DNA of 46,116 nt, taken from assembly GCA_038064075.1 (NCBI GenBank), contig JBBTTU010000017.1, positions 1-46,116 on the forward strand, written 5' to 3'. Every line of letters starts with the position of its first letter. Position 1 is the first letter of the stretch. The position numbers were made by a program, and so were the translations under genes. Below, piece by piece: positions 6,851 through 45,231 of the stretch. Below the pieces are notes generated by a model. That model was not told the origin of the DNA, did not search any database, and worked only from the letters and a program-made list of their open reading frames with translations. This DNA is from Patescibacteria group bacterium. GTDB lineage: Bacteria > Patescibacteriota > Minisyncoccia > HO2-45-28.

Positions 6851-6932
6851 AATCATTAGAACCAACGTAAAACTTTTTACGGTTTCTCATAATGTCTATA
6901 CAAAATAAAACTTTTGAAAACTTCTAACGGGG
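6851..6932. mobile_element. Degenerate ~82-bp CCCGTTAG/CTAACGGG miniature element
   Basis: Intact end CTTCTAACGGGG (6921-6932) contains the TAG stop of the neighbouring gene; decayed partner AATCATTAGAA at the family-typical distance. Confidence 0.4.
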
Positions 6933-7472
6933 CTTGTCAACCAGCTCGCCGTTTTGCCAAACGTAAGGCAAGTAACGGACTTTTACATCGGCTTTTTGGA
7001 GCCGTTCTTTCAGCCATTCGTTAAAATCTTTTCCGTCTTTTTCCAGCCGCTCGGCCAAAATATCCTGCCGGATCTGAGGCTCAATTAAAAATTTCATTGA
7101 TTCCTGACTAGTCCAACCGTAAAGCTTTTCGGTCGCTTTTTCAAATTTTCCGCCGTCCGGCCGGTTTAGCTCCTTTTCAATCCGGTCTTTAATCTCATTA
7201 TCGGAAATATCAAATTTGGCAAGCTCTTCTTTGATAAGCGCTTCTCTTATCAGCGAAAAAACAATGCCGCGCTTTACGGCATTTTCATCCAGTTCTTCTT
7301 TAGTTGTTCGGCGGTAATGTTCAAACCCGCTGACTCTGCCGAAATAAGCGCCGGTCCTGATCCGAACGCCGTTTACTTTTAAAATATGAAACCAGGCGCC
7401 GGACCAAACCAAAAATAAAGCGGCCGCGCCGATGATAAAAAGAAATATTAAACCCAAAAATGTTTTTTTCAT
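6924..7472 (-). CDS. Membrane-anchored SurA/PrsA N-terminal-domain-like protein
   Basis: Likely start MKKTFLGLIF at 7472 (the longer ORF overlaps the upstream gene); N-terminal TM, KVNG, LI.EALI..E, LYGWT, FNEWLKERLQKADVK. Confidence 0.65.
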   Translation of the reverse strand: MKKTFLGLIFLFIIGAAALFLVWSGAWFHILKVNGVRIRTGAYFGRVSGFEHYRRTTKEELDENAVKRGIVFSLIREALIKEELAKFDISDNEIKDRIEKELNRPDGGKFEKATEKLYGWTSQESMKFLIEPQIRQDILAERLEKDGKDFNEWLKERLQKADVKVRYLPYVWQNGELVDKPR

Positions 7473-7476
7473 CCCG

Positions 7477-7878
7477 TTAGAAGTTTCGGAAGTTAAAGAA
7501 ATTTTTAAAAAAGTCATAAAATTTTTGACGAAGAGTTTCGGATGAACCGGCTTTATTTTCAGGATTTTGAGCTTGTCGATCAACAATAATAGCCAGTTCC
7601 TCGTCCGGTTTTTTCAAGCTGAATCTGCGGCGCAATTCTTTTTCCAAACCGTAAGGACTGGAAAGATACTCGAGGCGGCTTTCCAAATCGTCTTTTTTCC
7701 GGCTGAGTTCTTCGCGATCTTTTTTAACCTTCAAATAAGCTTCGTTGACGGCGCTGAAACTAAGATAATTTTGAAACGCAAAACGGACGATGAACGCGGC
7801 CAAAACCGCAAGCAAAATAATCAGCGGCCGGGAAAAAATTATTTTTCGGATCAAACTCTGCCTTTGAAAACTCCTCAT
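7477..7878 (-). CDS. Septum formation initiator family protein (FtsB/DivIC-like)
   Basis: Single TM, coiled coil, LEYLSSPYGLEKELRRRFSLKKPDEE. Confidence 0.8.
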   Translation of the reverse strand: MRSFQRQSLIRKIIFSRPLIILLAVLAAFIVRFAFQNYLSFSAVNEAYLKVKKDREELSRKKDDLESRLEYLSSPYGLEKELRRRFSLKKPDEELAIIVDRQAQNPENKAGSSETLRQKFYDFFKNFFNFRNF

Positions 7879-7959
7879 CCCATTAGAAATTTGTCTTAAT
7901 TACGCTTTTCGACTAATATTATGGTATCCCCCGCCAGAATAACTTAATTTCTAACGGGA
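7878..7959. mobile_element. 82-bp miniature inverted-repeat element, CCCGTTAG family
   Basis: TCCCATTAGAAATT ... AATTTCTAACGGGA (13/14 inverted match), flanks CTCA/CTCG. Confidence 0.7.
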
Positions 7960-7984
7960 CTCGTTTACTTTTATCATACATTAT

Positions 7985-8101
7985 ATGGCTTTCGGATCCA
8001 AAAAAAGCAAAAGATATCGTTTGATCTGGATGGCAATCAGCATTATCGCGGTTTTGGGCATGATTGCTTATCTTTTCATTCCGTTTATTTCAATTTTTTA
8101 A
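7985..8101 (+). CDS. 38-aa single-TM small protein
   Basis: Manual translation MAFGSKKSKRYRLIWMAISIIAVLGMIAYLFIPFISIF; fills the gap before lepA; below the ORF-track cutoff. Confidence 0.65.
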   Translation: MAFGSKKSKRYRLIWMAISIIAVLGMIAYLFIPFISIF

Positions 8102-8106
8102 CGGAG

Positions 8107-9891
8107 TTAGCCCGGCCTAATCATTTTAATGAACACTTCTTGAGGGATATTGAGCCGGCCCATTTTTTTCAGGCGTTTTTTTCCTTTTTTCTGTTTCTGC
8201 CAAAGCTTCATTTTGCGCGTCCTGTCGCCGCCGTAAAGATAGCCGGTTACGTCTTTGCGCAAAGCCGGCAAAGTTCTGGAGGCCAGTATCCGGCCGCTGG
8301 CGCTCGCCTGTATTTTTAGGGCAAACTGCTCGCGCGGCAAAATGTCATAAAGTTTTTCAACTATCTTCCGGGCTTCCGCGCCGGAGGAACTGCCGGGCAC
8401 GATGCGGCTGAAAGCCGCAACCGCTTCGCCGTGAAGCAAAATATCAAGACGGACCAGACTCGCCGGCCGCCAACCGGCAAAATTGTAGGAAAAAGAAGCA
8501 AAACCGGATGTCGCGCTTTTTATTTCGTCAAAAAAATCGCGCATCAATTCCCGGAGAGGCATTTCGGCTTTCAGCAAATTTCTTTCGGCGCCGAAATTTT
8601 CAGCGGACAAAATCCGTCCGGAATGTTTTTGCAAGATTTTAAAAATCTGGCTGAGTTCTTTTTGAGGCGAAATGATGTCAAGATTCACCCATTGCTCTTT
8701 TATCTCGGCGATTTCACCGTCTTCGGGAAATTCAGCCGGAACATAAACGGTTTTTTCGCTTTTATTTTTTAAAACAACCTGAAAGGCGACTGTCGGACTG
8801 GCCGCGATTGTTTTGACGCCGAATTCCCTACGCAGACGCTCAAGGCCGATTTCCAGATGGAGCATGCCCAAAAAACCGAGTCTCATACCCCGTCCCAATA
8901 CCGGCGACGATTCTTCTTCATAAGAAAAAGAAGTGTCGTTTAAGCGCAGGCGCAAAACCGCTTTTTTAAAATCGTCGTAATCTTCTTCACTTAAAGGATA
9001 AGCGCTGGTCCAAACCGCCGGCTGCGCCTCGTGGTATCCGGTCAAAGCCGACGCCGGCTTGCCGGATAAAGTAACGGTGTCGCCGACTTTAACCGCCTCC
9101 GGGTTTTTGAGATTGGTGGCAATATAGCCGATCTCGCCATCTTTGAGCGCGCGCGCCGGCGCGCGCTCGGGCCGAAAAATGCCGACTTCCTGATTTACAA
9201 ATTTTTCTTTGGCGACCAACAATAAAAGTTCGTCGCCTTTTTTTATTTCTCCGGAAAAAACGCGGACATAAGCGATGACGCCCTGATGAGGCGAGTATTC
9301 GGAATCAAAAATCAGAGCTCCAAGCCGGTCTGACCCGGCCGGCTTGGGCGACGGAACCAGCCTGACAACGGCCTCCAGAAGTTTTTCAACGCCTTGTCCG
9401 GTTTTCCCTGAAATTTCAAAAATTTCCCGGCCGGCTAAATTTAAAATTTTGCGGATCTGTTCTTTAGTCTCCCCGATTCTGGCGGTCGGCAAATCAATTT
9501 TATTGACGGCCGGAATTATGACCAGATTTAAATTTTTGGCCATATCCAGGACCGAAATGGTTTGAGCTTCAATCCCCTGCGAGGCGTCAACCAATAAAAT
9601 CGCGCCCTCAACTGCGGCCAGCGCGCGCGAAACCTCATAAGCAAAATCAACGTGTCCGGGAGTGTCAATCAAATTCAAAATAAAGGGTTTAGCGTTTAGA
9701 GTATAGGCCATGCGGACCGGCTGCATCTTTATTGTTATCCCCCGCTCCCGCTCCAGTTCCATTGAGTCCAGGAACTGGGCGTGCATTTTCCGTTTCGGGA
9801 CGGTTCCGGTCAATTCCAAAAAACGATCGGCAAGCGTGGACTTGCCGTGGTCAATGTGCGAAATAATCACAAAATTCCTGATATTATCCAT
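8107..9891 (-). CDS. lepA: Elongation factor 4
   Basis: IRNFVIISHIDHGKSTLADR, LERERGITIK, DTPGHVDF, GFLGMLH, RKDVTGYLYGGDRTRKMKL. Confidence 0.98.
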   Translation of the reverse strand: MDNIRNFVIISHIDHGKSTLADRFLELTGTVPKRKMHAQFLDSMELERERGITIKMQPVRMAYTLNAKPFILNLIDTPGHVDFAYEVSRALAAVEGAILLVDASQGIEAQTISVLDMAKNLNLVIIPAVNKIDLPTARIGETKEQIRKILNLAGREIFEISGKTGQGVEKLLEAVVRLVPSPKPAGSDRLGALIFDSEYSPHQGVIAYVRVFSGEIKKGDELLLLVAKEKFVNQEVGIFRPERAPARALKDGEIGYIATNLKNPEAVKVGDTVTLSGKPASALTGYHEAQPAVWTSAYPLSEEDYDDFKKAVLRLRLNDTSFSYEEESSPVLGRGMRLGFLGMLHLEIGLERLRREFGVKTIAASPTVAFQVVLKNKSEKTVYVPAEFPEDGEIAEIKEQWVNLDIISPQKELSQIFKILQKHSGRILSAENFGAERNLLKAEMPLRELMRDFFDEIKSATSGFASFSYNFAGWRPASLVRLDILLHGEAVAAFSRIVPGSSSGAEARKIVEKLYDILPREQFALKIQASASGRILASRTLPALRKDVTGYLYGGDRTRKMKLWQKQKKGKKRLKKMGRLNIPQEVFIKMIRPG

Positions 9892-9903
9892 ATCTCATTA
9901 TTT

Positions 9904-10260
9904 ACCAGTATTACAAAATTCATTTTTGTTGACTTGCGGAAAGACTTTAAAAATTAAGGAGTTTTGCGAGGAAAAATAGCGGTCGGAAAACCCAGTCCCG
10001 CAGGTGTTTGCTTGTTCAAACCGGCAGTTCGCTTCTCCAGCGGAAGCGACTGCCTGCGTTCTCGGCGAAAAATCAGCCTCAGCCTTACTAGACATAAGAA
10101 AGAGGCTGAACCCAGCTTTTTCGCCTCCGAAAGCTTTTCACAACCAAACACCTTCGGGACTGGGGCAAACGGGGTACCGCGTTATTTTTCCGATGCAAAA
10201 CGACTATAATTTTCAAGACTTGGAGCGTTGTCATAAGAAAATGAATTTTGTAATACTGGT
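9904..10260. mobile_element. 357-bp non-coding fold-back (MITE-like) element
   Basis: Perfect 23-bp TIR ACCAGTATTACAAAATTCATTTT, imperfect pairing continuing over ~110 bp per arm, TTATTT direct repeats on both flanks. Confidence 0.8.
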
Positions 10261-10425
10261 TTATTTATTTTCCTGAATATACCGTTTTTTAAGATCGGCG
10301 AAATAACGTTCTATTTCGCGCTCATTGTTATTGTAATAATTTAAAAAATAAAGCGTTAAAAACGCCAGAATAACAAGCAGCGCAAAAAGTCCGATGAGCT
10401 TTAAAGATGTTTTATTAACAATCAT
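10261..10425 (-). CDS. Small single-TM hypothetical protein
   Basis: ATG start MIVNKTSLKLIGLFALLVILAFLTLYFL followed by a charged tail. Confidence 0.6.
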   Translation of the reverse strand: MIVNKTSLKLIGLFALLVILAFLTLYFLNYYNNNEREIERYFADLKKRYIQENK

Positions 10426-10445
10426 ATTAAAATATGATATAACTT

Positions 10446-11303
10446 TCACTTTGCATCTGCAAAATATTTTTCGCGATAATCTTTAAAAACCGAACAAATC
10501 TCGTTTATTTTCAAATTATTTTCAAACCGGGCGTTATCAATTTGAGAAACCGGCACCACACCGGTAGTTGAAGTTAAAATCGCGCCGATAATCTCTTTTT
10601 TGGCAATGGAATCGTAAGCAATCGGCGCTTGAACAACGCGCGGACAAAGATTATTTTTTGCAATCAGCTCGCATATTATTTTCATAGTGATGCCTTCAAG
10701 AATTTTATCCGGCGGCGGAACACAAAAAGAGCCGTCGGTCCGAAAAAAACCGATATTGGAACGAGTGGCTTCCAAAATATATTTATTGTCTTCCGTAAAA
10801 AGCACGTCGTCAAAACCGCTTTGGCCGGCCCGGCCGCAGGCGATCTCGGCAAAAAGATAGTCCGGAGATTTAATTTCAGGCAGAGGCCGCAGAAAATTCC
10901 GGGTTGCGAGCTTAACCGGTCCGGTCTTGCGCTTTAATCGGTAAACTTGAGCATAAAGCGAGGGAGCCGCGCCTGCGGCCGGATTGAATCCATCATCAGT
11001 TTGGCCGCGCGAAATATCAATTCTGACGAGCGATTCTTCAAAGCCGCATTTTTCAACGAGAATGCCGAGATTTTCGGACAGAGAACCGAATCCTTCAATC
11101 TGATCAAACGGAATGGCGGCTAAAGTAGCCGATTTTTTTAGACGCTGCAGATGGTCTTCAAGATGAAAAAAAACTTTTCCGCGGGCCTCAACCATGGTGC
11201 AGACCGCCCAATTGCGCAGCCGGCCAAGGTCGCTCGCCGGAGGCGCGGTTTCGCTAAGCGGACCAATATGATTGTCTGCAAGACCAAATTTACCTAATGC
11301 CAT
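10446..11303 (-). CDS. PLP-dependent class IV aminotransferase (IlvE/Dat/PabC family)
   Basis: HLQRLKKSA, catalytic Lys in EIKSPDY, LEATRSNIGF, ILEGIT, LTSTTGVVPVSQID. Confidence 0.85.
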   Translation of the reverse strand: MALGKFGLADNHIGPLSETAPPASDLGRLRNWAVCTMVEARGKVFFHLEDHLQRLKKSATLAAIPFDQIEGFGSLSENLGILVEKCGFEESLVRIDISRGQTDDGFNPAAGAAPSLYAQVYRLKRKTGPVKLATRNFLRPLPEIKSPDYLFAEIACGRAGQSGFDDVLFTEDNKYILEATRSNIGFFRTDGSFCVPPPDKILEGITMKIICELIAKNNLCPRVVQAPIAYDSIAKKEIIGAILTSTTGVVPVSQIDNARFENNLKINEICSVFKDYREKYFADAK

Positions 11304-11343
11304 AATTTATTTAAGCTTCGTTTTTTATACATAATGCCCATAA

Positions 11344-13592: not shown

Positions 13593-13640
13593 TTAGCGAT
13601 TATAAAATCAGCTGACCGAAAAGTCCACTAACGGGACAAT

Positions 13641-14414: not shown

Positions 14415-14433
14415 AATTTATATATTTTACCAA

Positions 14434-21543: not shown

Positions 21544-21894
21544 ATGAGAAAACTCAAAGACAGTTTCAAAGCGGCGTTCAGCGGCTTTGCCGAAACGCTG
21601 ATATACGAAAGAACTTTCAAAATAATGTTCGCGGCTGCTTGCTTAGTAATCGCGGGGATGTTTTATTTTCCAACCAGCCGGCTGGAAAAAATCGCGCTTT
21701 TGATAACGATATTTTCAGTTTTAATTCTTGAACTCATCAACTCGGTCATTGAACGGATGATGAATTTCATCCAGCCTCAAAAAAACACGCAAGTCAGGAT
21801 AATTAAAGACTTGGCGGCGGCGGTTATTCTTTTGGCCAGTTTCGGCGCCGCGATTATCGGAGCAGTAATCTTCTGGCCATATTTATTTAAATAA
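21544..21894 (+). CDS. dgkA: Diacylglycerol/undecaprenol kinase (DgkA family)
   Basis: SFKAAFSG, ERTF, LELINSVIE, IKDLAAAVIL; start set at MRKLK. Confidence 0.9.
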   Translation: MRKLKDSFKAAFSGFAETLIYERTFKIMFAAACLVIAGMFYFPTSRLEKIALLITIFSVLILELINSVIERMMNFIQPQKNTQVRIIKDLAAAVILLASFGAAIIGAVIFWPYLFK

Positions 21895-21903
21895 TCCCCA
21901 CGC

Positions 21904-22470
21904 TTATGCATAAGCGTGGGGATTAAAATCAATACTCAAACTTGAAATGGCTTTAAACCCGAAAATATCAGAAGCGATATTTCTGATATTTTCTGAATCG
22001 TCAATAATCAAAACCATTTGCTCAGATATTCCCAAAACTATCCTAAAAAGTTCAAGCCGGGCAAAAATATGAATATGCGGCTTGACTTTCGAGCATCGCC
22101 GGATCCGATCGTCAAATCTGATGTTCCGGTTTAATTTATCCAGCATACTTTTCCTTACTTGGATAAATTCAAACTGATTAAAAAATATCTTGTTTTTTTT
22201 ACAAATTTTCAGAAGTGACAGATAGCTGCGATCGGTAATAATTCCGATCTTATAATCGCCGCGTCCTCTTGTTTTTAACTGCTCAAAAAAATTAACAGCT
22301 TCAGGCTTGAGCGAAGGCGTTTTGATAAAATCTATCGCTTCCTTAATTAAGAAAAAAAACTTGGGAGTTGATTCAATACCCAGAAATCTTTGAACTTTCA
22401 TCCAGATTTTTTCAAGCCAGCCGCTATCAACCAATACTCCGTCAACATCCAAAACCAAAATTCTTTCCAT
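21904..22470 (-). CDS. HAD-superfamily hydrolase-like protein
   Basis: LDVDGVLVD motif I, IITDR, KP, IIDDS motif IV; SD AAGGAGG. Confidence 0.75.
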   Translation of the reverse strand: MERILVLDVDGVLVDSGWLEKIWMKVQRFLGIESTPKFFFLIKEAIDFIKTPSLKPEAVNFFEQLKTRGRGDYKIGIITDRSYLSLLKICKKNKIFFNQFEFIQVRKSMLDKLNRNIRFDDRIRRCSKVKPHIHIFARLELFRIVLGISEQMVLIIDDSENIRNIASDIFGFKAISSLSIDFNPHAYA

Positions 22471-33737: not shown

Positions 33738-34160
33738 TTAATACCTGACTTCAAGTCCTCTTTCCACTCTTTTTACTCCCGCACACGGACTTCGGCCGAT
33801 TGAAGTGACTATCGTTAAATTGGGATCGGTTTTATCAACATCAATCGTGGCGCAGGAACCATTGTCAAAATCCAAACTAAATGAGCTGACCAGTCCCCCG
33901 CCGACTGAACGGCTCTGGCCGGCGCAGGTGATGGTTGAAGGACTGGAAGTTGAAAATTTGATTTCCGAAATCCAATAAATATCCCAGTAAATCACGCATT
34001 CGGCCGCGGAATCGGCGGCGTAAAAAGCGATTTGCGAATCGCGGCCGATGCCGGAAAGCCTGATTCTTCCCAAAACCAATCCTGAAATGCCCAAAGAAAC
34101 CGAAAGAGCGGCGGCGATGAACAAAATGGAAAACAATAATGAAAAGCCTTTATTTTTCAT
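33738..34160 (-). CDS. PilX-like minor pilin
   Basis: MKNKG|FSLLF lacking Glu5, SQIAFYAADSAAEC. Confidence 0.8.
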   Translation of the reverse strand: MKNKGFSLLFSILFIAAALSVSLGISGLVLGRIRLSGIGRDSQIAFYAADSAAECVIYWDIYWISEIKFSTSSPSTITCAGQSRSVGGGLVSSFSLDFDNGSCATIDVDKTDPNLTIVTSIGRSPCAGVKRVERGLEVRY

Positions 34161-34774
34161 GGCGCTAATTTTCTTTGGGAAACCAAAGTTTGCAAACTAA
34201 GCTCTTTTTTGGTTCCTTTGGTCTGAACCGAAGCTTTAATGCTGATTAAAATTCTTGGCTGCAAACTGTCGCCGCTGGCCGCGCCTGATACAATAAACGC
34301 CAAATCTTCAATTAAAACATCGCCCGAAGTCAAAGGTTGGAAAGAAGCGCCGCCGTCAGTGGATTTTTGGATGCGACTGTCAATTTGGCGGTAAATGACG
34401 CTTTGAAGCTGGGTGGTCTGAAAAGTAAGCGAAGAATCTCCGGCCGGACAGTCAAGCGGTCCGACACCGGCCGAAAAACCGCAATGATAATCGCGGCCGG
34501 TCCGTATTTCTTTAGCCATCATCTCAAGCCCGAAACGCAGATTGTCCTGCAAATTCACTTCGTTCTGGACTTTTCTCTCGGCATTCTGCAAATTTAAAAA
34601 TGTTGAAGTGGACATAAAAATAGCAACGGAAAAAACGCCTAAAGCGACTATCAATTCAATCAATGTGAACCCCGTTAGTAAGTTAATTTGTTCAGCTTTA
34701 TTGTTGATATTTTTGTTTTTTGCCATATTTTGACGGCTTACTGACAGGGTGAACCCTCGTTTATCCATAATCAT
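34157..34774 (-). CDS. PilW/PulJ-like minor pilin whose leader is extended by an 80-bp element
   Basis: G|FTLIELIVALGVF, LEMMAKEIRTG, C-terminal LQTLVSQR. Confidence 0.88.
   Translation of the reverse strand: MIMDKRGFTLSVSRQNMAKNKNINNKAEQINLLTGFTLIELIVALGVFSVAIFMSTSTFLNLQNAERKVQNEVNLQDNLRFGLEMMAKEIRTGRDYHCGFSAGVGPLDCPAGDSSLTFQTTQLQSVIYRQIDSRIQKSTDGGASFQPLTSGDVLIEDLAFIVSGAASGDSLQPRILISIKASVQTKGTKKELSLQTLVSQRKLAP
34670..34749. mobile_element. 80-bp miniature inverted-repeat element, copy A, in frame in a prepilin leader
   Basis: CCCCGTTAGTAAG...CTTACTGACAGGG flanked by TGAA/TGAA. Confidence 0.85.
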
Positions 34775-34777
34775 AAT

Positions 34778-35323
34778 TTATTCAAAAGACAAATTTAAAA
34801 GATGTTCTTCTAAAGTAAAACTCTGGGTGCCGTTTCCCTGCGGCCAAGAAATGTTTACGTCAAGTTTTATTTCCCGCGACGGCTCAACCTCGGTTATCAA
34901 AACCTGCCGGGAAAAAATGGTTTCATTGCCTGACGAATAATTAAATAAATTATTTGAAGAATCAAACTTGATTTCGGGACAAGCCGCCGCGCAAGGAGTA
35001 ATAGCGGCGTTGACGGCGTCAACATAGCAGCCATTCACGGCTTGGCAATCGGCCAAACCGTCAAGCCAAGAATTTCCGGCTAAAACATTGGAATCCCTGA
35101 CGTTGCGGATATATTCCACGGCTTCGCTCGCCAAAAAAAAGGCCGTGACTTGATTGGAAATGCGCACGGCTGAACGCACTCCCATTGATGAAAGCGACAA
35201 AATGCCGGATAAAGCCATGGCTAAAAGGCCGATTGAAACGATGCTTTCAAGAAGCGAAAAACCTTGGTGGAAGGATTTATTGGTATTTAGCGTTGATTGT
35301 TTGGTAAAGTTCATTTTATTCAA
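34778..35323 (-). CDS. PilV-like minor pilin
   Basis: G|FSLLESIVSIGLL, AFFLASEAVEYIRNVRD, FSRQV. Confidence 0.85.
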   Translation of the reverse strand: MNKMNFTKQSTLNTNKSFHQGFSLLESIVSIGLLAMALSGILSLSSMGVRSAVRISNQVTAFFLASEAVEYIRNVRDSNVLAGNSWLDGLADCQAVNGCYVDAVNAAITPCAAACPEIKFDSSNNLFNYSSGNETIFSRQVLITEVEPSREIKLDVNISWPQGNGTQSFTLEEHLLNLSFE

Positions 35324-35939
35324 TTGAAAGCTGGCCGGTCTGCCAGATGACGATGCGGCGCTCAGCGCCTTCGGGCGACTTTATTATAATTTCGGCGTCG
35401 GTGAACTCTACTCCATCAGCGCTGATCACAATATCCGGATTGGGCCTGACAAAAACAACATCAAGCCGGGCGATGGAACAATCCCCCGGCGGAGCCGATT
35501 TGGCGCCGGCGCAAACTTGAATAATTGATGGAAGATTTTGAATAAAAAACGTATCTGCCAGTTCAGCCGGAGCGTCATATTCCCGGTCGCCGTTGACATC
35601 GGCAAAAAGAATATAGGATTTTGCCGGAAAATTTTCAAAGTGAAGGCCGTAAGCCGGAAAAATTCCGGACCCGAATTCCCGCACCGCCAGCGCGGCGCCT
35701 TCGGCTTCGCGAAAAGAAAAAGCTATGGCTTGGGCGGTTCGCGAAAGCTCAAGCCGGCGGAAAAAATCCGGAAAATCAGCCAAAATCAGAGCCGATATCA
35801 TAAGAATGATTCCGACCGATATCATCATCTCAAGCAAAGTAAATCCCGCTGGTAAGTTAATTTGTTCAGTTTTATTGTTGATATTTTTGTTTTTTGCCAT
35901 ATTTTGACGGCTTACTAACGGGATAAACCCCTTGTTCAT
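35316..35939 (-). CDS. FimT/FimU-like minor pilin whose leader is extended by an 80-bp element
   Basis: G|FTLLEMMISVGII, YGLHF, LFAD, C-terminal TGQLSIE. Confidence 0.85.
   Translation of the reverse strand: MNKGFIPLVSRQNMAKNKNINNKTEQINLPAGFTLLEMMISVGIILMISALILADFPDFFRRLELSRTAQAIAFSFREAEGAALAVREFGSGIFPAYGLHFENFPAKSYILFADVNGDREYDAPAELADTFFIQNLPSIIQVCAGAKSAPPGDCSIARLDVVFVRPNPDIVISADGVEFTDAEIIIKSPEGAERRIVIWQTGQLSIE
35844..35923. mobile_element. 80-bp miniature inverted-repeat element, copy B, in frame in a prepilin leader
   Basis: TCCCGCTGGTAAG...CTTACTAACGGGA flanked by TAAA/TAAA; 73/80 identical to copy A. Confidence 0.85.
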
Positions 35940-35960
35940 TTTTTAATTATAACAAACCTG

Positions 35961-35982
35961 GTTAGAAATAACGATTTCTAAC
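35961..35982. repeat. Short hairpin made of the family end motif, containing the pilD stop codon
   Basis: GTTAGAAAT-AACG-ATTTCTAAC, perfect 9-bp inverted repeat. Confidence 0.6.
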
Positions 35983-36736
35983 GGAGCAGGGAAAAATACC
36001 AGGAAATAATTTTATTTCCCCACAGAAAAGCGCTAAGGCTCCCTAAAAATAAAAATGGGGCAAACGGAATCTGGATCTTCAGATTCTTTAATTTTTTGAC
36101 AAATACCAATGCCAGGCCGAAAATCGCTCCGATCCAAAAAGAAAATAAAAGCGCGAGCCCTCCCTCGGGCCAGCTGAGCATTAAACCGATCGCCAAAGCC
36201 AGCTTGGCGTCGCCAAAACCCATCCAGCGGCCGCGGGATGCCAGCCACAACCCGGCGAAAAAAATAAATAATCCGGCGCCGGCGAGCAAATGAATTATGA
36301 ATAAATAACGGGGAATTAAAAATAAGGAAAGAATAAAAGCGGTGAAAATCGCAATGTAAACCAAGCTGTCAGGGATTATTTTATGGCGGATGTCATAAAC
36401 CGAAATCATAAGCAAAAGCCAAAAAAATAAAATTGCTGTTCCGGTCAGAATCGGATTCTGAAATCCCAGCCGGTAATACACCAGCAGAAATATGAAAGCG
36501 CTGGCAATCTCAAAAAACGGATACTGGCGGGATATTTTGCCCAAGCATGTCCGGCACCGGCCTTTTAAAAATAAAAATGAAACAACCGGAATCAGTTCAA
36601 GCCAGCCGAGTTTCCGGCCGCAAAAAAAACACCGCGAGCCTCTAAAAATTAGAGACTCGCCGGTGTTTAAATTGAATATGATTACGTTTCCGAAACTTCC
36701 GAAAATCAGCCCTAAAACGAAAATCAAAACTGCCAT
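35978..36736 (-). CDS. pilD: Prepilin peptidase/N-methyltransferase (A24)
   Basis: GSFGNV, SRC..C, ELIPVVS...GRC..C...IS.QYP, YDIRH, MGFGDAKL, IPFAPFL; start set at MAVLIF. Confidence 0.95.
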   Translation of the reverse strand: MAVLIFVLGLIFGSFGNVIIFNLNTGESLIFRGSRCFFCGRKLGWLELIPVVSFLFLKGRCRTCLGKISRQYPFFEIASAFIFLLVYYRLGFQNPILTGTAILFFWLLLMISVYDIRHKIIPDSLVYIAIFTAFILSLFLIPRYLFIIHLLAGAGLFIFFAGLWLASRGRWMGFGDAKLALAIGLMLSWPEGGLALLFSFWIGAIFGLALVFVKKLKNLKIQIPFAPFLFLGSLSAFLWGNKIISWYFSLLR

Positions 36737-37380: not shown

Positions 37381-37382
37381 CT

Positions 37383-38591: not shown

Positions 38592-38601
38592 CTTGTAAAA
38601 A

Positions 38602-39669: not shown

Positions 39670-39673
39670 TGAT

Positions 39674-40123: not shown

Positions 40124-40136
40124 AATTCTTAATTCA

Positions 40137-41849
40137 TTATATTTGAATTAACTGTTCAAAGCCGACCCGGCCGTCAAGCAATTTCAAAATTCCGTCTTCA
40201 TGCATGGTAATCATGCCTTGGCGCCTTGCTTCTTTTTCCAGCGCTTCCGGACGGGAATCGTTTAAAATAACTTTTTCCAATTCTTTGGTCGCGCTTAAAA
40301 CCTCAAAAACCCCGATCCGGCCGCGCGTGCCTTTGGGACAGGCGGCCGACGGCATGGCTTCATAAATTTCCTTCGGCCATTTTATTTTTCTTTTGACAAC
40401 TTCGGACACGTCTTTCAATTCCCGATCCAGTTTTTCTTTGAGTTCATCCGTCATTTTCAAAGCTTTGCGCGACTCGGGACAAAGAGTCTGAATCAAACGC
40501 TGGGCAACCACCGCCGCCATAGTCGGAGCGATCAGATACGGATCAATGCCCATGTCCATCAGCCTCGGTATGGCTCCGATGGCATTGTTGGTGTGAAGCG
40601 TTGACAAAACCAGATGTCCGGTCAGGGCGGCGTGAATCGCCAAAGCGGCAGTTTCCTTGTCCCGTATCTCGCCTACCAGTATTATATCAGGATCCTGGCG
40701 AAGTATGGAACGGAGTCCGTTGGCAAAATCATATCCGATTTCCGGCCGGACTTGAGACTGATTGACGCCTTTAATGTTGTATTCAACCGGATCTTCAAGA
40801 CTGACTAAATTTGACCGCTCGCTGTTAATGGTCTGAAGCATGGCGTAAAGGGTGGTGGTTTTTCCGGAGCCGGTCGGACCGGTCAGCAAAATCAATCCGT
40901 ACGGCCGCTTAAGCGCGTTTTCTATTTCTTCCAAATTGCGGCCTTCCAGGCCCAGACTTTTTAAGTCATAAACATTTTTTTCCGGATCTAAAATGCGGAT
41001 CGCCACTTTTTCGCCGAAAGACGTCGGCATGGTGGAAACCCGAAAATCAATTTCACGCTCGCCGACTTTGGCTGAAAATCTTCCGTCCTGCGGTTTTCTT
41101 TTTTCATCCAACTGCATATTGGTCAGAATTTTGATCCGGGAAACAACCGCTTCGTGCATTTTAAGCGGCAGCCAAAGGCTGGTGTAAAGAATTCCATCCA
41201 CTCTGAATCTAACCCGCAGTTTGTCTTTGGAAGGTTCAATATGGATGTCAGAAGCCCGGCCCTCGGTGGCGTGCTTGATGATCACCGCGACCATCTTGGT
41301 TACCGGCGCTTCTTCAACAAAAACTCCTTCTATGACCGTTCCCGGAGCGACCAAAACCGGTTTTTCCTCCTGTAAAGCTATTTCAAATTCGGAAAGAACG
41401 CCGCTTACTTCTCCGCCAAGGCTTTTATATTCTTCCAAAACCGTTTCAAGATCGGCGCCTGAAATAACGTATATTTTAAAAGGAATGTTTGTTTTGGAGG
41501 CGATAAACTTTATGGCTTCTCTGGCTTCAATATTGGCCGGATCAAACATTCCGATTTCCAAAACTCCGTCTTTTACGCCAAGCGGGGCAAATTGATAAAG
41601 GCGCGCCGACTCCTCGGGCAAAAATTTCAGCACTTCAACATCCACTTTCTGGCCTTTCAATTCATAAACCGGAACGCCGTAAGTTTCGCTTTTGGCCGCG
41701 AGTATCTCGCCGGGCGCGATGCCGCGGCTTTCCAAAATTTTATCAACCGGAACGCCGCTGGACGCTGATTCGTTTTTTATTCTCGCGGCGGCGTTTGCGT
41801 TGATTAAACCCTTCTCGGTCAGACGATCAATAAAATAAAGATCGGGCAT
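40137..41849 (-). CDS. pilB: Type IV pilus assembly ATPase (PilB/GspE)
   Basis: ASDIHIEP, RFRVDG, PQDGRF, GPTGSGKTTTLY, LRQDPDIILVGEIRD, TGHLVLSTLHTN. Confidence 0.95.
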   Translation of the reverse strand: MPDLYFIDRLTEKGLINANAAARIKNESASSGVPVDKILESRGIAPGEILAAKSETYGVPVYELKGQKVDVEVLKFLPEESARLYQFAPLGVKDGVLEIGMFDPANIEAREAIKFIASKTNIPFKIYVISGADLETVLEEYKSLGGEVSGVLSEFEIALQEEKPVLVAPGTVIEGVFVEEAPVTKMVAVIIKHATEGRASDIHIEPSKDKLRVRFRVDGILYTSLWLPLKMHEAVVSRIKILTNMQLDEKRKPQDGRFSAKVGEREIDFRVSTMPTSFGEKVAIRILDPEKNVYDLKSLGLEGRNLEEIENALKRPYGLILLTGPTGSGKTTTLYAMLQTINSERSNLVSLEDPVEYNIKGVNQSQVRPEIGYDFANGLRSILRQDPDIILVGEIRDKETAALAIHAALTGHLVLSTLHTNNAIGAIPRLMDMGIDPYLIAPTMAAVVAQRLIQTLCPESRKALKMTDELKEKLDRELKDVSEVVKRKIKWPKEIYEAMPSAACPKGTRGRIGVFEVLSATKELEKVILNDSRPEALEKEARRQGMITMHEDGILKLLDGRVGFEQLIQI

Positions 41850-41852
41850 ATT

Positions 41853-42158
41853 TTACTGTTTTTCTAACGGGGCGAAAGGATTCGGACGGCCTTTTTCGGC
41901 CGGTTCGGCGATATTGGGAGTGAAGTCCTGAAAACTGCGGTAGATCGGTCCGGCAATAAACTCAAAATCAAATTTAAGCCCTTCCAGCGACTCAAGCAAA
42001 GTCAAAAGCGAACGGTTGCTGACATCCGCGCTTGCGGCCATTTTGGCGACCGGCTGGCTGGGCTCTGAAGCCAAAAAACGATACCAAATAAACGCCGAGC
42101 CGATAATGGCGACCGCGATCAGAAAAGTTAATATGGCCGATTTAAATTTCTGGCTCAT
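41853..42158 (-). CDS. Small membrane-anchored pilus-locus protein (PilP position)
   Basis: N-terminal TM, C-terminal GRPNPFAP; follows pilO. Confidence 0.7.
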   Translation of the reverse strand: MSQKFKSAILTFLIAVAIIGSAFIWYRFLASEPSQPVAKMAASADVSNRSLLTLLESLEGLKFDFEFIAGPIYRSFQDFTPNIAEPAEKGRPNPFAPLEKQ

Positions 42159-42703
42159 TTTATTCCTAAAATATAGCTGTTAACCGTCAAAGAAAAATCA
42201 TACAAATCTTTGTCTCCGCCGGATGAAAAAGAAACATCGGTTATATCAATGATCCTCAGGCTCTTTTCAAGTTCTTTGATAAAATTAATAAAATTCTCAT
42301 AATTGCCGGAAACGGAGAATGTCAGCGAAACAATATTATCCTTATTGTCTTTGTTTTTATCGCTTTTTGATTTCGGCAATGTTTTGGCGTCGGCAACATT
42401 GATATTTTTAAGAAAAAGATTGTTTTGGCTTGCCATATTGGCCAGCTGGACGACCAGAATTCCGGATTTCGGAATTTCGGGCACGGCATTTTTTATTTTT
42501 TTCAATTCCTCATCCGGTATGGTATTGTAGCTTTGCAAAAGAGCGTCGCGGGTTTTGCGCAAAACATTGACGCGGGCGATAACCGATTCAAAATTCTGTT
42601 TTTCAACTCCAAGCTCGCGGATCTCGCTCCGCATCGGCTGGCTCCAGAAAAAAAAGAGCGAAAAGGCCGCGGCCAACAAAATTATAGCGAAAAAAAATCT
42701 CAT
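42155..42703 (-). CDS. pilO: PilO-like protein
   Basis: TM, coiled coil, SGNYENFINFIKELEKSLRIIDI; M-N-O gene order. Confidence 0.85.
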   Translation of the reverse strand: MRFFFAIILLAAAFSLFFFWSQPMRSEIRELGVEKQNFESVIARVNVLRKTRDALLQSYNTIPDEELKKIKNAVPEIPKSGILVVQLANMASQNNLFLKNINVADAKTLPKSKSDKNKDNKDNIVSLTFSVSGNYENFINFIKELEKSLRIIDITDVSFSSGGDKDLYDFSLTVNSYILGIK

Positions 42704-42707
42704 AAAA

Positions 42708-43265
42708 TCATTCGGGTTGATAAAAAATTAAATCCGGCTGGACGGTAAAGATCGTGTTGAAATTGACGAGCCCGCCGGAGCTCAAAACAAAATTTGAAAA
42801 AGAAACATCCTTGATCAAACGGCTCTTTTCAAAAATTAAAGACTGCTCGGCCAAAGCGACGTACGAGCGGGCCGTGCCGGTCAGGCCGACTTTGCCGCCG
42901 TTATAGCTGAAATTGGAAAAACGGACGCTGGCAATGGTGTTTTCTTCCAAAAATTTAAAAAGGCGCGACAGGGCGACATGTTTTTGAGTCAGGTTTTTGA
43001 TGGAATTGATTGCCAAAGCGGTCTGCTGTAATTCAACGATTAGAGCCGGTTCAAATTCGCCTTCCACTTTTTGAAGCGTGGCCGAAAGATTATTAATCTG
43101 CCCCCGGATCAAACCGCGGTAAAAAAAGAGTCCGACCGAAATCAAAAGAGATATGGCGAATAAAATAAACGCCCCGGTGTTGAGCCAGCCGATCCCGCGC
43201 GCCTGATACAGCGTTTTTTCGGCCATCGGCGCAATTTTGGGAATAAATGTTTCTTTTTCAACCAT
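42708..43265 (-). CDS. pilN: PilN-like protein
   Basis: TM, coiled coil, LTGTARSY..LAEQ; lies between pilM and pilO. Confidence 0.75.
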   Translation of the reverse strand: MVEKETFIPKIAPMAEKTLYQARGIGWLNTGAFILFAISLLISVGLFFYRGLIRGQINNLSATLQKVEGEFEPALIVELQQTALAINSIKNLTQKHVALSRLFKFLEENTIASVRFSNFSYNGGKVGLTGTARSYVALAEQSLIFEKSRLIKDVSFSNFVLSSGGLVNFNTIFTVQPDLIFYQPE

Positions 43266-43286
43266 TTTTATTTTTTATATTTAATA

Positions 43287-44419
43287 TTATTTTAATCCTC
43301 TTAAAGCCAGACCTATGGCCGTGGCAAACGACGGCCCGACTTCTTTGACTGCCGGCTGGACCAAAGACGGGAATTCCAAACGGTTAAACGGCTGGCCCAG
43401 ACTGGTTTCAAGACCGAAACGTTCGGCTGCTTTTTCCACTAAACCTTTTAGCAGTCCGCCACCGCCGTAAATAATCACCCGGCTGATGGATCGACCTGAT
43501 TTGCGCCGGTAATCCAAAAGCGCCGGCCGGCTTCGGAAAACAAACGGTCAACCAGCGGCTCAATGATGCTTTTGATTTCCTGATGCTCCGGCTTGTCCGA
43601 AAGGCCAATGACGCGCTTCAATTCTTCGGCTCGGGCAAAATTAACATTCAAAGATCTGGCCAAAGTTTCGCTGATTTCCTGCGATCCGCGCTCATAAGCG
43701 TAAACCATGCGGACGATTCCGTAATCAACCGCGGTGATTTTGGCGCTGGCCGCTCCGGCGTCAATCAAGAGCACCGGCGCCAAGTCACTGGCCAAAATCG
43801 ACCTCGCCGCGCTGAATATTTCTATTTCAAAAGCCAAAACCTGAAGACCGGCTGATTTTAAAATGGAACGGTATTTATCCAAAATTTCTTTGTGGATCGC
43901 CACCAAAAGCACTGACATAAATTTCTTTTTCTTGACCAGTCCCTCGTTGTCATTCGCGCTTGGATTCGCGCTGAAACCTTCGGGAATAATCCACCAGTCG
44001 AGCGTAACATCGGCTATCGGCACCGGCACGTAGCGACGAGCTTCAAATTTTATGGCCTCGCCCAATTCCCTCTCGCTCATCAGCGGCATGTCAATTACGG
44101 TAACAAAACTGGAATGCATCGGAACGTTAATTACGGCGTCTTTGGATTTGATTCCGGCTTCTTTAATAAGATCCGAAATCGCCTCTTTGGCTTTGGCGTC
44201 GTCAATCTTTGCAGCCCGGCCGACCTCTACTCCTCCGTAAGGCCCGGTGGCCAACTCGCCGTAAGTTTCCAAAATCGCCCGCTCCTTAAACCGGCGAAGC
44301 TGCACCATTTTAATTGAAGAAGAACCGAAATCAACGCCTAAAACGCTTTCAGCCTCTTTTTTCCACGGCCAAAAGCTTTTCGGCAGCGTCAAACTCTTGA
44401 AAAATGATAATTCCGACAT
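43287..44419 (-). pseudogene. pilM: PilM split by a 1-nt frameshift near 43522 (pseudogene or assembly error)
   Basis: ORF 43475..44419 has GVDFGSSSIK and EARRYVP but loses similarity after SEAGR; the actin-like C-terminus (IIYGGGGLLKGL...PF...ATAIGLALR) lies in ORF 43287..43517. Confidence 0.85.
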
Positions 44420-44490
44420 GCATTATGTGGCTTTGCCTTCCCAGGTTTGCCTCTTTCATTATATCATAAGATAATTTTTACTAATGCCAC

Positions 44491-44499
44491 TTATCCACA
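44491..44499 (+). promoter_or_regulatory. Perfect DnaA box in the divergent pilM/comF intergenic region
   Basis: TTATCCACA; minus-strand TATAAT at 44458-44463. Confidence 0.55.
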
Positions 44500-44523
44500 A
44501 ATTAGTTTATCCGGGAACGAAAC

Positions 44524-45159
44524 ATGTTTGACTCTCGCAAAATTGTTCCGTTTTTAATTGAAATTATTCTGCCCAAGAAATGCCTGTCCTGCGGCCGATT
44601 CGGCAAATATATTTGTCCGAAATGCTTTGATAAAATTTTTGAACCGGAAGCGCGGTCGCTGCCGTCATTGAATATCGTTATTTCAGCCGGCGCTTACGCC
44701 AACCCCATTCTCAAAAGGATTTTACGCCAGTTCAAATTCCGCCGCAGCCAGGCTTTGAAAGACGATCTGGCCGATCTGATGCTGAAAGCGGCCGGTTCCA
44801 ATTTGACAGCCGGCTCTCAAATTCTGGCAATACCGATGACGGCCAAAAGAAAAAGAGAACGGGGATTCAATCAGGCCGAGCTTTTAGCCAAAACTTTGGC
44901 TCAAAAAACAAATTTGCCGCTGGCAGACGGCTTGGTTAAAATTAAAAAAACAAAGCCGCAAGCCGAAATAAAAATTCGCAAAGAAAGATTGGAAAACGTG
45001 AAAAACGCTTTTGGTTTGAAACCCGGCTTCAAGCCGGCCGAGACCGTAATTTTAATTGACGACATCTCAACGACCGGCGCGACCTTGAGCGAAGCGGCGC
45101 GGGTCTTAAAAAAAGCCGGAACCAAAAAAGTAATCGGATTAGTGGTTGCCGGAGGGTGA
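44524..45159 (+). CDS. comF: ComF family competence protein (Zn ribbon plus PRTase)
   Basis: C..C......C..C, ERGFNQAELLA, RLENVKNAF, LIDDISTTGATL. Confidence 0.93.
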   Translation: MFDSRKIVPFLIEIILPKKCLSCGRFGKYICPKCFDKIFEPEARSLPSLNIVISAGAYANPILKRILRQFKFRRSQALKDDLADLMLKAAGSNLTAGSQILAIPMTAKRKRERGFNQAELLAKTLAQKTNLPLADGLVKIKKTKPQAEIKIRKERLENVKNAFGLKPGFKPAETVILIDDISTTGATLSEAARVLKKAGTKKVIGLVVAGG

Positions 45160-45231
45160 AAAGTGTAATCAGCGATGTTCTATAAACAGATTATCTCAAG
45201 AAGACCGACTCAAGAGAGCTTCTAACGGGGG

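Follow-up and report, generated by a model that had tools for sequence, protein, structure and literature searches.

Bacterial MITEs and their parent IS (the Correia/NEMIS elements of Neisseria, and the IS5 group with its 4-bp duplications) have inverted ends and a fixed short duplication, occur as many short non-coding copies together with a longer enzyme-coding copy that has the same ends, and insert beside promoters and genes. The repeat family described here resembles them in all these respects, but its complete unit is only ∼282 bp long, and in place of a DDE, HUH, serine, or tyrosine transposase it encodes a 93-aa GIY-YIG nuclease, in an ORF that often has no start codon of its own and uses that of the host. 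GIY-YIG homing endonucleases, free-standing or intron-encoded (I-TevI, T4 Seg), are likewise selfish genes between host genes and have catalytic motifs in common with the 93-aa protein. However, homing genes have no terminal inverted repeats, target duplications, or non-coding derivatives, and they have one cognate target and extra DNA-binding domains, whereas a bare catalytic domain and many targets were found here. REP/REPIN sequences and their RAYT (Y1) genes also form dispersed inverted doublets with a mostly single-copy, motif-flanked enzyme gene; the present family differs in its enzyme fold, its 4-bp duplications, and the presence of the enzyme unit at many loci. Rickettsia palindromic elements (RPEs) insert in frame into coding genes and add a peptide, as in two pilin leaders described below, but their end sequences and host group differ, and we know of no encoded or associated enzyme. 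The nearest solved relatives of the protein are the UPF0213/YhbQ-like and Slx1 URI-domain nucleases, whose stand-alone size of ∼100 aa fits; to our knowledge, neither inverted-repeat borders nor mobility have been reported for them. In the literature, we found no description of a ∼282-bp inverted-end element with only a 93-residue GIY-YIG gene. Judged by its sequence, the family would be classed as a transposable element with derived MITEs, as it has shared terminal repeats, a 4-bp duplication, filled and empty sites, and a variable copy number. Other assignments were rejected: an integron attC or other site-specific recombination site (no linked recombinase, no single crossover core), membership of the REP/REPIN-RAYT group (the Y1 genes are not flanked by the repeats), and a homing endonuclease gene, which has one cognate target and no element repeats (many targets and conserved inverted ends here).

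The window analyzed is a stretch of 46,116 nt (positions 1–46,116 of contig JBBTTU010000017.1, assembly GCA_038064075.1) from a Patescibacteria group bacterium. The genome under study is called G000 and C4 and C2 are its contigs; other G numbers denote relatives, and L numbers denote loci. A preliminary description of the window had reported a recurrent motif, CCCGTTAG/CTAACGGG, and this recurrence proved to be real: eight exact copies (at 6924, 7473, 7951, 13628, 34671, 35915, 41864, and 45222) were found against 0.79 expected (standard deviation 0.96, largest 4), and 0 of 100 shuffles of the window reached eight exact copies of CTAACGGG. When one mismatch to CTAACGGG was allowed, there were 18 matches against 25 expected, so the signal is confined to the exact core plus flanking bases; of the one-mismatch sites, those of relevance are 7879 (CCCATTAG) and 35978 (TCCGTTAG). 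The genome-wide count against a Markov background that the description had proposed gave 24 exact copies of CTAACGGG in the 558-kb genome (2.5–9.4 expected, Markov orders 1–4), 18 of TTCTAACGGG (0.30 expected), and nine of ACTTCTAACGGG (0.01 expected), and no 8-, 10-, or 12-mer of the genome is more over-represented than the forms of the motif CTAACGGG, TCTAACGGGG, and ACTTCTAACGGG, respectively. A terminal inverted repeat, with the consensus YCCCGTTAGARRY, has the motif as its core. We consider it probable that this core marks the inverted ends of very small mobile elements that are widely distributed among Patescibacteria, with the GIY-YIG unit as the complete form and its protein as the putative mobilising nuclease. 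This reading builds on the repeats, the duplications, an empty site, the spread in copy number, and the linkage to the nuclease gene.

A larger enzyme-bearing element with the same ends, which had been suggested as something to look for, was found outside the window at G000:C4:68028-68309; it carries a GIY-YIG gene rather than the recombinase or transposase that had been envisaged. In this 282-bp unit, CCCCGTTAGAAGTC and GACTTCTAACGGGG surround a 93-aa nuclease ORF that is the sole content; the left repeat contains the first codons of this ORF (Pro-Val-Arg) and the right repeat its TAA stop. G000 has one such complete copy. The long copy has CCCCGTTAGAAGT, the same 13 nt are carried by the short G000 copies, and all four well-preserved copies of the genome are flanked by TGAA. 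The unit lies at the junction of a hisF-like and a hisH-like gene (Pfam), which is empty in two relatives (L122 and L123), where the two genes meet in a plain ...TTATGAAAAA... overlap; the G000 junction minus the element and minus one TGAA matches this empty site. Similarly, the ftsB/surA junction has no motif in 8/8 family relatives, and a bare ATGA stop/start overlap occurs in six of them. Since a metagenome scan returned only relatives at 43–45% identity, these filled/empty comparisons are between species.

The 93-aa ORF matches Pfam GIY-YIG (PF01541) over residues 8–74 (E = 1.3e-15; 57.9 bits, cut-off 22.6), and its nearest solved structures are UPF0213 BH0048 (1ZG2, E = 2.8e-6) and SLX1. 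An alignment of 20 homologs shows no variation at residues Y12, Y23, G25, R33, H37, N38, E69, and N83, and by analogy with I-TevI we take these residues to play catalytic roles (GIY Tyr, YIG Tyr, Arg, His/Asn, Glu, and distal Asn). The protein is a predicted nuclease of the GIY-YIG superfamily, UPF0213/Slx1-like by sequence. A two-copy structure model scored 0.78 against 0.02 for the best control, a mark reached by 20 of 30 proteins solved as one-chain pairs and by one of 23 solved as single chains; the runs agreed in 100% of contacts, with a pLDDT of at least 86, and the model supports self-binding of the nuclease.

Among the best 80 of the 429 homolog loci found, 65 had both repeat cores at the ends of the ORF, and in these loci, from many lineages, the nuclease ORF was the sole content between the ends and was fitted to the repeats; because possession of the core was the criterion by which these 65 were chosen, the selection itself accounts in part for the invariant CCGTTA of the consensus. 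The units are 274–312 bp long (median 282). Their outermost bases are complementary (C..G in 44 loci, T..A in 16, and G..C in four, with one exception), and because the ATG of some loci comes only after the left repeat, it is the DNA rather than the protein that is constrained. Exact 4-bp flanking repeats were present at 40 of the 65 nuclease loci, all in other genomes, with seven more one mismatch off, against 0–2 of 65 in shifted controls, and at 16 of 20 short copies in G017. The flanking 4-mers have the form TNNA/G (TGAA, TATG, TTGA, TCAA, TTCA, TGGA, TTTA, and others), with at least 13 different ones across loci and five within one genome. The preliminary description had favored site-specific recombination, and this was not upheld: 4-bp flanks of so many different sequences point to staggered-cut insertion, not to a fixed crossover core. 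The nuclease unit occupies different loci in different genomes and occurs more than once in some (L049/L050, L058/L061).

Across 41 genomes (G000 and 40 relatives, one class), the 11-mer TTCTAACGGGG occurred 0–75 times per genome, mostly in inverted pairs 54–124 bp apart, whereas the reversed-pattern control occurred 0–3 times. The end type often accompanied the nuclease type: in G000 the nuclease unit and 12 ends are of the AGAA type and no end is of the AGAG type, and G015 and G016, with AGAG-type units, have 6 and 31 AGAG-type ends, respectively; as a counter-case, G009 has an AGAG-type unit, yet most of its ends are AGAA-type. Other GIY-YIG genes have other repeats. The second such gene of G000 carries a different inverted repeat (a 28-nt pair at 89%), and in G036 (28 ends), where only the variant repeat was found, a more distant GIY-YIG gene carries ACCCCGTGAAATA (13/13). 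A repeat-flanked nuclease gene was not found in the assemblies of G017 (75 ends), G033 (20), G028 (15), and G021 (14), whose best GIY-YIG matches are without these ends. Another point against our reading is that, for the most part, short-copy interiors align neither with one another nor with the nuclease gene; that the short copies descend from the complete form can therefore be presumed at most.

The window contains two 80-bp inserts, one 82-bp copy, one 30-bp mini-copy, four solo ends, and one uncertain site. The preliminary description had placed several of these at gene boundaries, and its positions held with the exceptions given below. An inverted-repeat end, CCCCGTTAGAAG, at 6921–6932 (minus strand) provides the last codons (..KPR) and the TAG stop (6924–6926) of a SurA-like gene. 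Here a decayed insert of ∼85–90 bp has kept one end intact; it fills 6835–6932, between the SurA-like stop and a tRNA-Gly (6763–6834), and its second end is degenerate (TTCTAATGA, near 6840–6848). In eight family relatives only a few bases separate this stop from the tRNA, and in G005 the same surA-like codon has a 15-bp palindrome with a CAAG duplication. A solo right end, AACTTCTAACGGGA, lies at 7472–7484 (minus strand) between the ftsB/DivIC-like and SurA-like genes (Pfam names): its TAA (7477–7479) is the ftsB-like stop, CGGG-ATG of the next gene follows, and the SurA-like ATG (7470–7472) consists of the last base A of the end plus TG. Directly upstream of the ftsB/DivIC-like start codon is a complete 82-bp non-coding copy (7878–7959, minus strand) with the ends TCCCATTAGAAAT and AATTTCTAACGGGA and a 31-bp inner palindrome (7929–7959). 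It is flanked by CTCA (7874–7877) and CTCG (7960–7963), or TGAG/CGAG on the gene strand, and the lepA-ftsB spacer is ∼85 bp longer than that of G002.

At the site previously given as ∼13628, in the ROK-SecDF spacer, the 8-mer is present within an isolated TCCCGTTAG (13627–13636, minus strand), but no extended consensus, partner end, or duplication was found; it may be a decayed solo end or may have arisen by chance, as one chance 8-mer per window is expected (0.79). The 30-bp mini-copy at 35957–35986 (no strand assigned) consists of two decayed ends, CCTGGTTAGAAAT and ATTTCTAACGGAG, around a 4-nt spacer, and its TAG (35978–35980) is the stop of the prepilin peptidase PilD, identified by its Pfam A24 domains. 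A solo end, CCCCGTTAGAA, at 41862–41872 (minus strand) lies within the final codons of a 101-aa ORF, with the start codon of a PilB-like ATPase 12 nt farther downstream, and a solo right end, TTCTAACGGGG(G), at 45220–45231 (plus strand; the 11-mer at 45220–45230) adjoins a TTGACA −35-like hexamer (45232–45237) upstream of a ParE-like gene. Partner ends were sought for both and none was found. Ten TTGA/TCAA insertions were examined in G017, and nine of them show the same end-to-TTGAC arrangement, as do several nuclease loci (L012, L018, L024, L034, and L047). The solo ends are 13–15 nt long and count against the explanation that we prefer, which gives them no origin.

The pilin genes, which had been proposed as targets, are real targets with the sequence GG(G/T)-TTYA-C, although the exact copies at 34671 and 35915, the ends of the two pilin inserts, had been left out of the earlier list. 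An 80-bp in-frame copy at 34670–34749 (minus strand) lies in the leader peptide of a type IV pilin gene (ORF 34157–34774). It has a decayed left end (CCCTGTCAGTAAG), the right end CTTACTAACGGGG, and a TTCA duplication (34750–34753 and 34666–34669); its deletion in silico recovers the leader MDKRG|FTLIEL, and the Pfam N_methyl motif of the ORF starts only at residue 35. A second 80-bp in-frame copy of the same subfamily, with the ends TCCCGTTAGTAAG and CTTACCAGCGGGA, occupies the same position in another pilin gene (35844–35923, minus strand; ORF 35316–35939), with a TTTA duplication (35924–35927 and 35840–35843); its deletion in silico recovers MNKG|FTLLE, and the N_methyl motif is at residues 31–52. 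A third insert of 80 bp, with a TTTA duplication, was found at the same pilin position in G017. All three copies share the length and a Lys/Asn-rich interior; instead of three independent insertions, recombination between the 5′ ends of pilin genes may have spread them.

We also weighed other explanations of the repeats. It is rather unlikely, though the strongest of the competing views, that another enzyme mobilises the short copies and that the GIY-YIG gene is a passenger, or a homing-endonuclease gene that colonised the element. The many-ended genomes without a repeat-flanked nuclease gene and the unrelated interiors of the short copies would fit such a history, and no GIY-YIG nuclease is known to us as a transposase; against it stand the 65 of 80 loci in which the nuclease ORF alone was fitted between the ends, the different inverted repeats of other GIY-YIG subfamilies, and the absence from G000 of both a longer unit bearing these ends and any match to DDE_Tnp_1, rve, DDE_Tnp_4, DDE_3, or resolvase. 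We regard as improbable a REP/REPIN-like system, in which palindromes are kept by a domesticated single-copy enzyme for host benefit (transcript ends, mRNA stability). Its enzyme could be one of the Y1 (IS200/RAYT-like) genes of G000, where three Y1_Tnp-like matches were found; RAYT genes are flanked by REPs, much as the single-copy nuclease gene of G000 is flanked by its repeats, and mini-palindromes occur at gene ends, such as the PilD stop. However, no CCCGTTAG ends were found near the three Y1 genes. Elements of the Y1 type lack terminal inverted repeats and leave the target unduplicated, whereas 4-bp duplications prevail in the present family. The nuclease unit also changes loci between genomes, sometimes with more than one per genome.

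Slightly less credible still is conservative site-specific recombination, in which a circle with joined ends (CTAACGGGR-N4-YCCCGTTAG) would integrate at a shared 4-bp core in an integron- or Xer-like manner. A shared crossover core would also yield flanking 4-mers, TGAA is common to all four intact G000 copies, pilin targets recur, and G000 has one Phage_integrase-family gene. Nevertheless, the number of flanking 4-mers, both across loci and within one genome, does not suit a shared core, and none of the 80 loci examined has a recombinase next to the ends or between them. The resemblance to integrons noted earlier thus did not hold, as no resolvase was found in G000, its lone tyrosine recombinase is on another contig (C2) with no repeat end nearby, and the ends are linked to a nuclease instead of a recombinase. 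We give hardly any credence to the motif being an immobile host expression signal (translation-coupling or promoter-proximal) kept by selection: many copies do adjoin start codons (TAA-CGGG-ATG/GTG) or TTGACA boxes, but within one class the genomes carry anywhere between 0 and 75 copies, relatives manage without the motif at the orthologous junctions, and copies are also found at the 3′ ends of genes, within pilin-coding sequence, in both orientations, and in inverted pairs with flanking duplications.

We therefore return to small mobile elements with a GIY-YIG complete form. Our results agree with the earlier proposal of a scattered family, mobile now or in the past, whose members share their ends but not their interiors and whose short copies depend on an enzyme acting in trans; no such enzyme is encoded in the window. 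The complete form would be ∼282 bp with one ORF, a stand-alone GIY-YIG nuclease of ∼93 aa, and the short derivatives of 30–117 bp, which the window holds together with solo ends, would retain only the ends. The sequences support mobility by cut-site duplication: insertion would generate a 4-bp target duplication, TNNA or less often TNNG, which would imply a 4-nt offset between the cuts and subsequent fill-in or ligation. The linkage suggests that the nuclease may catalyse this movement, probably acting as a symmetric dimer that recognises the ends and cuts for both complete and short copies. Against this role, the GIY-YIG family consists of hydrolytic nucleases for which we know of no strand-transfer chemistry, and the characterised members known to us leave 1–2-nt 3′ overhangs, not a 4-nt stagger.

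The choice of targets is far from random, with start codons, TTGAC boxes, and the pilin cleavage site recurring, and surviving insertions would cluster where the duplication repairs what the insertion breaks. At A|TGAA start codons, the left copy would give the host ribosome site and ATG to the element ORF, so that nuclease expression may be driven by start-codon capture, and the right copy with the last base of the element (G/A) would remake the host GTG/ATG, 4 nt past the element TAA. TTGA|C −35-like boxes would be restored in the same way, and at the prepilin cleavage site, GG(G/T)|TTYA|C, an insertion of 80 + 4 bp would stay in frame and rebuild Gly|Phe-Thr-Leu.

The recurrence of the end motif claimed in the preliminary description was confirmed: the 46-kb window contains eight copies of the exact 8-mer where 0.79 would be expected, a count not attained in any of 100 shuffles that preserved dinucleotides. 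The reported overlaps of the motif with stop and start codons were also correct when checked against the window sequence. When one mismatch was allowed, the 18 matches in the window fell below the 25 expected, which places the signal in the exact core together with the conserved sequence flanking it. An 11-mer with two mismatches gave 101 matches, compared with about 106–148 in shuffles; such relaxed scans were dominated by noise and served only for locating partners of exact ends. In the source genome (G000; 557,881 bp in 32 contigs, with the window as contig C17), we counted 24 exact 8-mer copies (2.5–9.4 expected under Markov orders 1–4), 18 copies of TTCTAACGGG (0.30 expected), and nine of ACTTCTAACGGG (0.01 expected). 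The top over-represented 8-, 10- and 12-mers were forms of the motif; a DnaA-box-like word, TGTGGATAAC / GTTATCCACA, with 10 copies against 0.32 expected, also stood among the top 10-mers. Comparison of oriented contexts showed that many of the 24 copies are inverted pairs. Across G000 and 40 relatives, the 11-mer TTCTAACGGGG ranged from 0 to 75 copies per genome and was present in 27 of the 41 genomes (reversed-pattern control, 0–3 per genome), mostly as inverted pairs 54–124 bp apart.

One inverted pair, at 68028–68309 of G000 contig C4, encloses an ORF of 93 aa; the unit starts as ATGAAC/CCCGTTAGAAGT and ends as ACTTC-TAA-CGGGG. The ORF encodes a GIY-YIG nuclease domain alone (Pfam PF01541, E 1.3e-15), its closest solved relatives are UPF0213 BH0048 and SLX1, and its catalytic positions are invariant across 20 aligned homologs. 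It has 670 homologs at E ≤ 0.001, mostly in Patescibacteria, with 65–92% identity among the matches listed. We then took the best 80 of 429 genomic loci encoding relatives of the nuclease, a few of which were from Bacteroidota (Brumimicrobium) and one of which was labelled Scalindua. Both repeat cores were found at the ORF ends in 65 of the 80; among the other 15, inspected by eye, most had one-mismatch variants or were cut by contig ends, and about four had no repeats. The units were 274–312 bp long (median 282) with the end consensus YCCCGTTAGARRY, and their outermost bases were complementary in 64 of the 65 loci. Because the left repeat lies upstream of the nuclease ATG in several loci and the right repeat runs beyond the stop codon, the constraint acts on DNA.

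With element boundaries set at [Y]CCCGTTAG...CTAACGGG[R], the 4-mers immediately outside the two ends were identical in 40 of the 65 loci and differed at one position in 7 more, compared with 0–2 matches in 65 when one window was slid by 1–3 bases. The duplicated 4-mers were TGAA (22), TATG (6), TTGA (2) and ten others; over both ends, position -4 was T in 87 of 130 flanks and position -1 was A in 101 of 130. Exact 4-bp duplications also flanked 16 of 20 short copies (65–117 bp) in the relative G017 (TCAA, five; TTGA, four; TTCA, four; TGGA, two; TCCA, one), and all four well-preserved pairs on C4 of G000 (108, 80, 282 and 108 bp) had a TGAA duplication. The nuclease units of two loci, L026 and L056, are placed precisely at the 5' ends of tRNAs (GGGCTATAG.. 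and GGGCTGTAG..), and 6-bp repeats flank them. Immediately upstream of the L026 unit is an older solo right end, which suggests that one site was struck repeatedly.

Comparison with relatives revealed empty sites. The His_biosynth and GATase genes of G000 are split by the 282-bp unit, and L122 and L123, whose HisH proteins are the two closest relatives (79% and 74% identity), have these genes overlapping as ...AGA(C/T)TATGAAAAA...; the G000 junction minus the element and one TGAA equals this junction. The order lepA-ftsB-surA-tRNA-Gly is kept in eight family relatives. In six of these, ftsB and surA simply overlap by ATGA at their junction; none of the eight has the motif there, and in all of them a few bases separate the surA stop from the tRNA. 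In G000, there are 13 excess nt at the ftsB/surA junction and about 89 between the surA stop and the tRNA, and the lepA-ftsB spacer is ~85 bp longer than in the relative G002. A metagenome scan with the ftsB-like protein for strain-level empty sites returned only three loci, all distant at 43–45% identity. In two relatives (L103 and L105), the tRNA-Gly region downstream of the surA-like gene seems interrupted by ~45 nt after the anticodon-loop region; next comes TCCCGTTAAAATTTT, immediately ahead of a second tRNA-like start. An insertion or intron, together with a variant end next to a tRNA 5' end, could account for this arrangement.

Two pilin genes in the window each carry an 80-bp insert between the codons for Gly(-1) and Phe(+1), at the prepilin cleavage site, with perfect duplications (TTTA and TTCA). 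The right end, ...ACGGG(G/A) followed by TTYA, re-encodes Thr/Ala-Gly/Phe, and 80 + 4 nt equal 28 codons, so that a lengthened leader is followed by a reconstituted cleavage motif. Removal of the copies restored the leaders MNKG/FTLLE and MDKRG/FTLIE, and the Pfam N-methylation motif of the two proteins begins only at residues 31 and 35. A third case, in G017 (a different family), has 80 bp and a TTTA duplication at the same pilin position. An 82-bp copy at 7878–7959 abuts the ATG of the ftsB-like gene, with its last base as the A of that codon (flanks TGAG/CGAG), and a 30-bp mini-copy supplies the PilD stop codon. Solo ends lie at 6921–6932, 7472–7484, 41862–41872 and 45220–45231; the site at 13628 is doubtful. 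Pfam matches were clear for the PilD A24 peptidase, pilin N_methyl and the PilB-like ATPase, and weak, below the cut-off, for the SurA-like and DivIC/FtsB-like proteins. We considered whether the FtsB C-terminus (..FFNFRNF) is derived from an element; since homologous tails occur in relatives (..FFNTGQ, ..LFNFNR), only the last 13 nt are foreign in G000. A ParE-toxin-like ORF (45502–45780; Pfam E 7.8e-8) lies downstream of the promoter-like TTGACA that the 45220 solo end adjoins.

The insertions occupy particular positions relative to host genes. The last base of the element and the duplication together form ATG or GTG in 29 of the 65 nuclease loci, followed in 23 of these by an ORF of at least 60 aa, and in a crude classification of starts and stops, the in-frame nuclease ATG consists of a host A and the duplicated TG in 22 of the 65. 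From these patterns, insertion at A/TGAA would have two effects: the nuclease ORF would gain the ribosome site and start codon of the host, and the host gene would regain a start 4 nt beyond the TAA. What is rebuilt in the AGAG subfamily, which differs in its ends, is an ATGA overlap. Insertions of a second class are found immediately upstream of TTGAC(A): they comprise 9 of 10 TTGA/TCAA insertions inspected in G017 (the ten being nine exact duplications plus a near-match), several nuclease loci and the window site at 45220. We infer that the target preference is TNNA-biased and that selection has then retained the harmless or expressed insertions. At G000 C24:7519, C26:28080, C31:17808 and C4:15674/73311, the ATG is directly followed by a 15-nt in-frame block, AAAAYTTCTAACGGG, giving several proteins, one of them FolD-like by eye, an N-terminal MK[TI]SNG tag. 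One-sided deletion or an excision footprint are candidate origins of such solo ends.

The anatomy of inverted ends, fixed duplication and short derivatives is that of insertion sequences and MITEs; however, the enzyme differs, belonging to a class known from homing endonucleases, Slx1 and UvrC. Site-specific recombination resembling that of integrons had been proposed, but this reading failed: the 4-mers beside the elements vary, and the ends have no linked recombinase. A REP/RAYT system would not account for the duplications, and the three Y1_Tnp-like genes are not flanked by the ends, whereas a classical homing endonuclease gene is at odds with the many targets and with repeats borne by the element itself. 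The in-frame pilin inserts recall the Rickettsia palindromic elements. As a Shine-Dalgarno-like or leaderless-promoter signal, the motif would have GGG directly against ATG and a poor -10 in TTCTAA, and its copy number among relatives rules out this function. We likewise rejected a hairpin resembling a tRNA anticodon loop, since the flanks are not complementary, and an invertible promoter switch, which leaves the 4-bp direct repeats and in-frame pilin copies unexplained.

Several other palindromic repeats were observed. In L103 (G005:C3), the surA-like gene is followed at once by a 15-bp palindrome, CCCCGCTAAGCGGGG, with a CAAG duplication; it occupies the C-terminal surA codon at which the end lies in G000, and it turns ..IDK* into ..IDKPR*. 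The same hairpin, as (T)CCCGCTAAGCGGG(A) followed by a T-run, resembles a terminator at other places, namely downstream in L109 and in the interior of L083; it may represent a related mini-element family. The perfect or near-perfect palindrome ACTTGGGAGTCGGACTCCCAAGT has six copies in G000 (C6:42094–42788, C2:30768 and C8:14479), four of them around a Y1_Tnp-like (IS200/RAYT-like) gene at C6:42334–42558, and may belong to a separate REP/RAYT-like system. Hairpins with GC stems, CCCC(G/A)CGCTTATGCATAAGCG(C/T)GGGG, at window 21893–21924, G000 C5:838–870 and C23:3422–3454, are probably terminators or another small palindromic repeat.

The proposal of a dispersed family mobilised in trans is supported by these data, and the candidate enzyme is the GIY-YIG nuclease. 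We regard a mobile family with inverted-repeat ends as highly probable, the combined claim of such a family moved by its own nuclease as quite likely, and the assignment of the mobilising role to this enzyme, taken by itself, as reasonably probable. The nuclease is the sole content of the long form in many lineages, and searches of G000 yielded no DDE, rve or resolvase gene. A different GIY-YIG subfamily in G036 has another inverted repeat (13/13 ACCCCGTGAAATA), and a second, distant GIY-YIG gene of G000 (C19:400–695, L121) has its own 28-nt inverted repeat, CCCCCACACTAATTAAGGATT..., 89% complementary, of which no dispersed copies were found in G000. The end subtype tends to match the nuclease subtype within a genome: G000 has an AGAA-type unit with 12 AGAA-type and no AGAG-type ends, and AGAG-type units occur in G015 and G016, alongside 6 and 31 ends of that type. 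A two-copy model of the nuclease scored 0.78 against 0.02 for the best control. Among proteins of solved structure, this mark was attained by 20 of 30 that were pairs of one chain and by 1 of 23 that were single chains; all contacts (100%) agreed between runs, with pLDDT of at least 86. The model supports, without establishing, self-binding, and the pass may reflect likeness to solved complexes; a symmetric dimer would fit the inverted ends and near-palindromic TNNA target. Against a mobilising role, G017, G033, G028 and G021 have 14–75 ends yet no repeat-flanked nuclease gene in their assemblies, and G009 has an AGAG-type unit yet mostly AGAA-type ends. The 4-nt stagger is also unlike that of characterised GIY-YIG members, which are hydrolases for which we know of no strand-transfer activity. 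More tentatively, and with slightly less than even chances, the 93-aa nuclease may be the sole protein needed to move the 282-bp element and its non-coding derivatives; the element would have no start codon of its own and be expressed only on landing at a host A/TGAA start codon, where the 4-bp duplication would rebuild the host start.

In the full-text literature searched, from which subscription journals are largely absent, so that an earlier description is possible, we found neither GIY-YIG genes with inverted repeats at their borders nor a GIY-YIG transposase, nor any mention of this end sequence. The portion consulted of the 2006 GIY-YIG survey (PMC1564403) is likewise silent on inverted repeats beside such genes.

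If the nuclease is the mobilising enzyme, the GIY-YIG class would be added to the prokaryotic transposases, and an extremely compact selfish element would be defined. Should the tentative sole-protein reading hold, this would be a new enzymatic class of prokaryotic DNA transposon and, to our knowledge, the smallest that is autonomous, at 282 bp. The tag YCCCGTTAGA offers a short handle for locating these elements in metagenomes. The family explains annotation oddities of small Patescibacteria genomes, namely GTG starts directly after CGGG, N-terminal MK[TI]SNG tags, long pilin leaders and stop codons donated by repeats, and it shows how start codons, promoters and a signal-peptide cleavage site can take up an element and yet be preserved.
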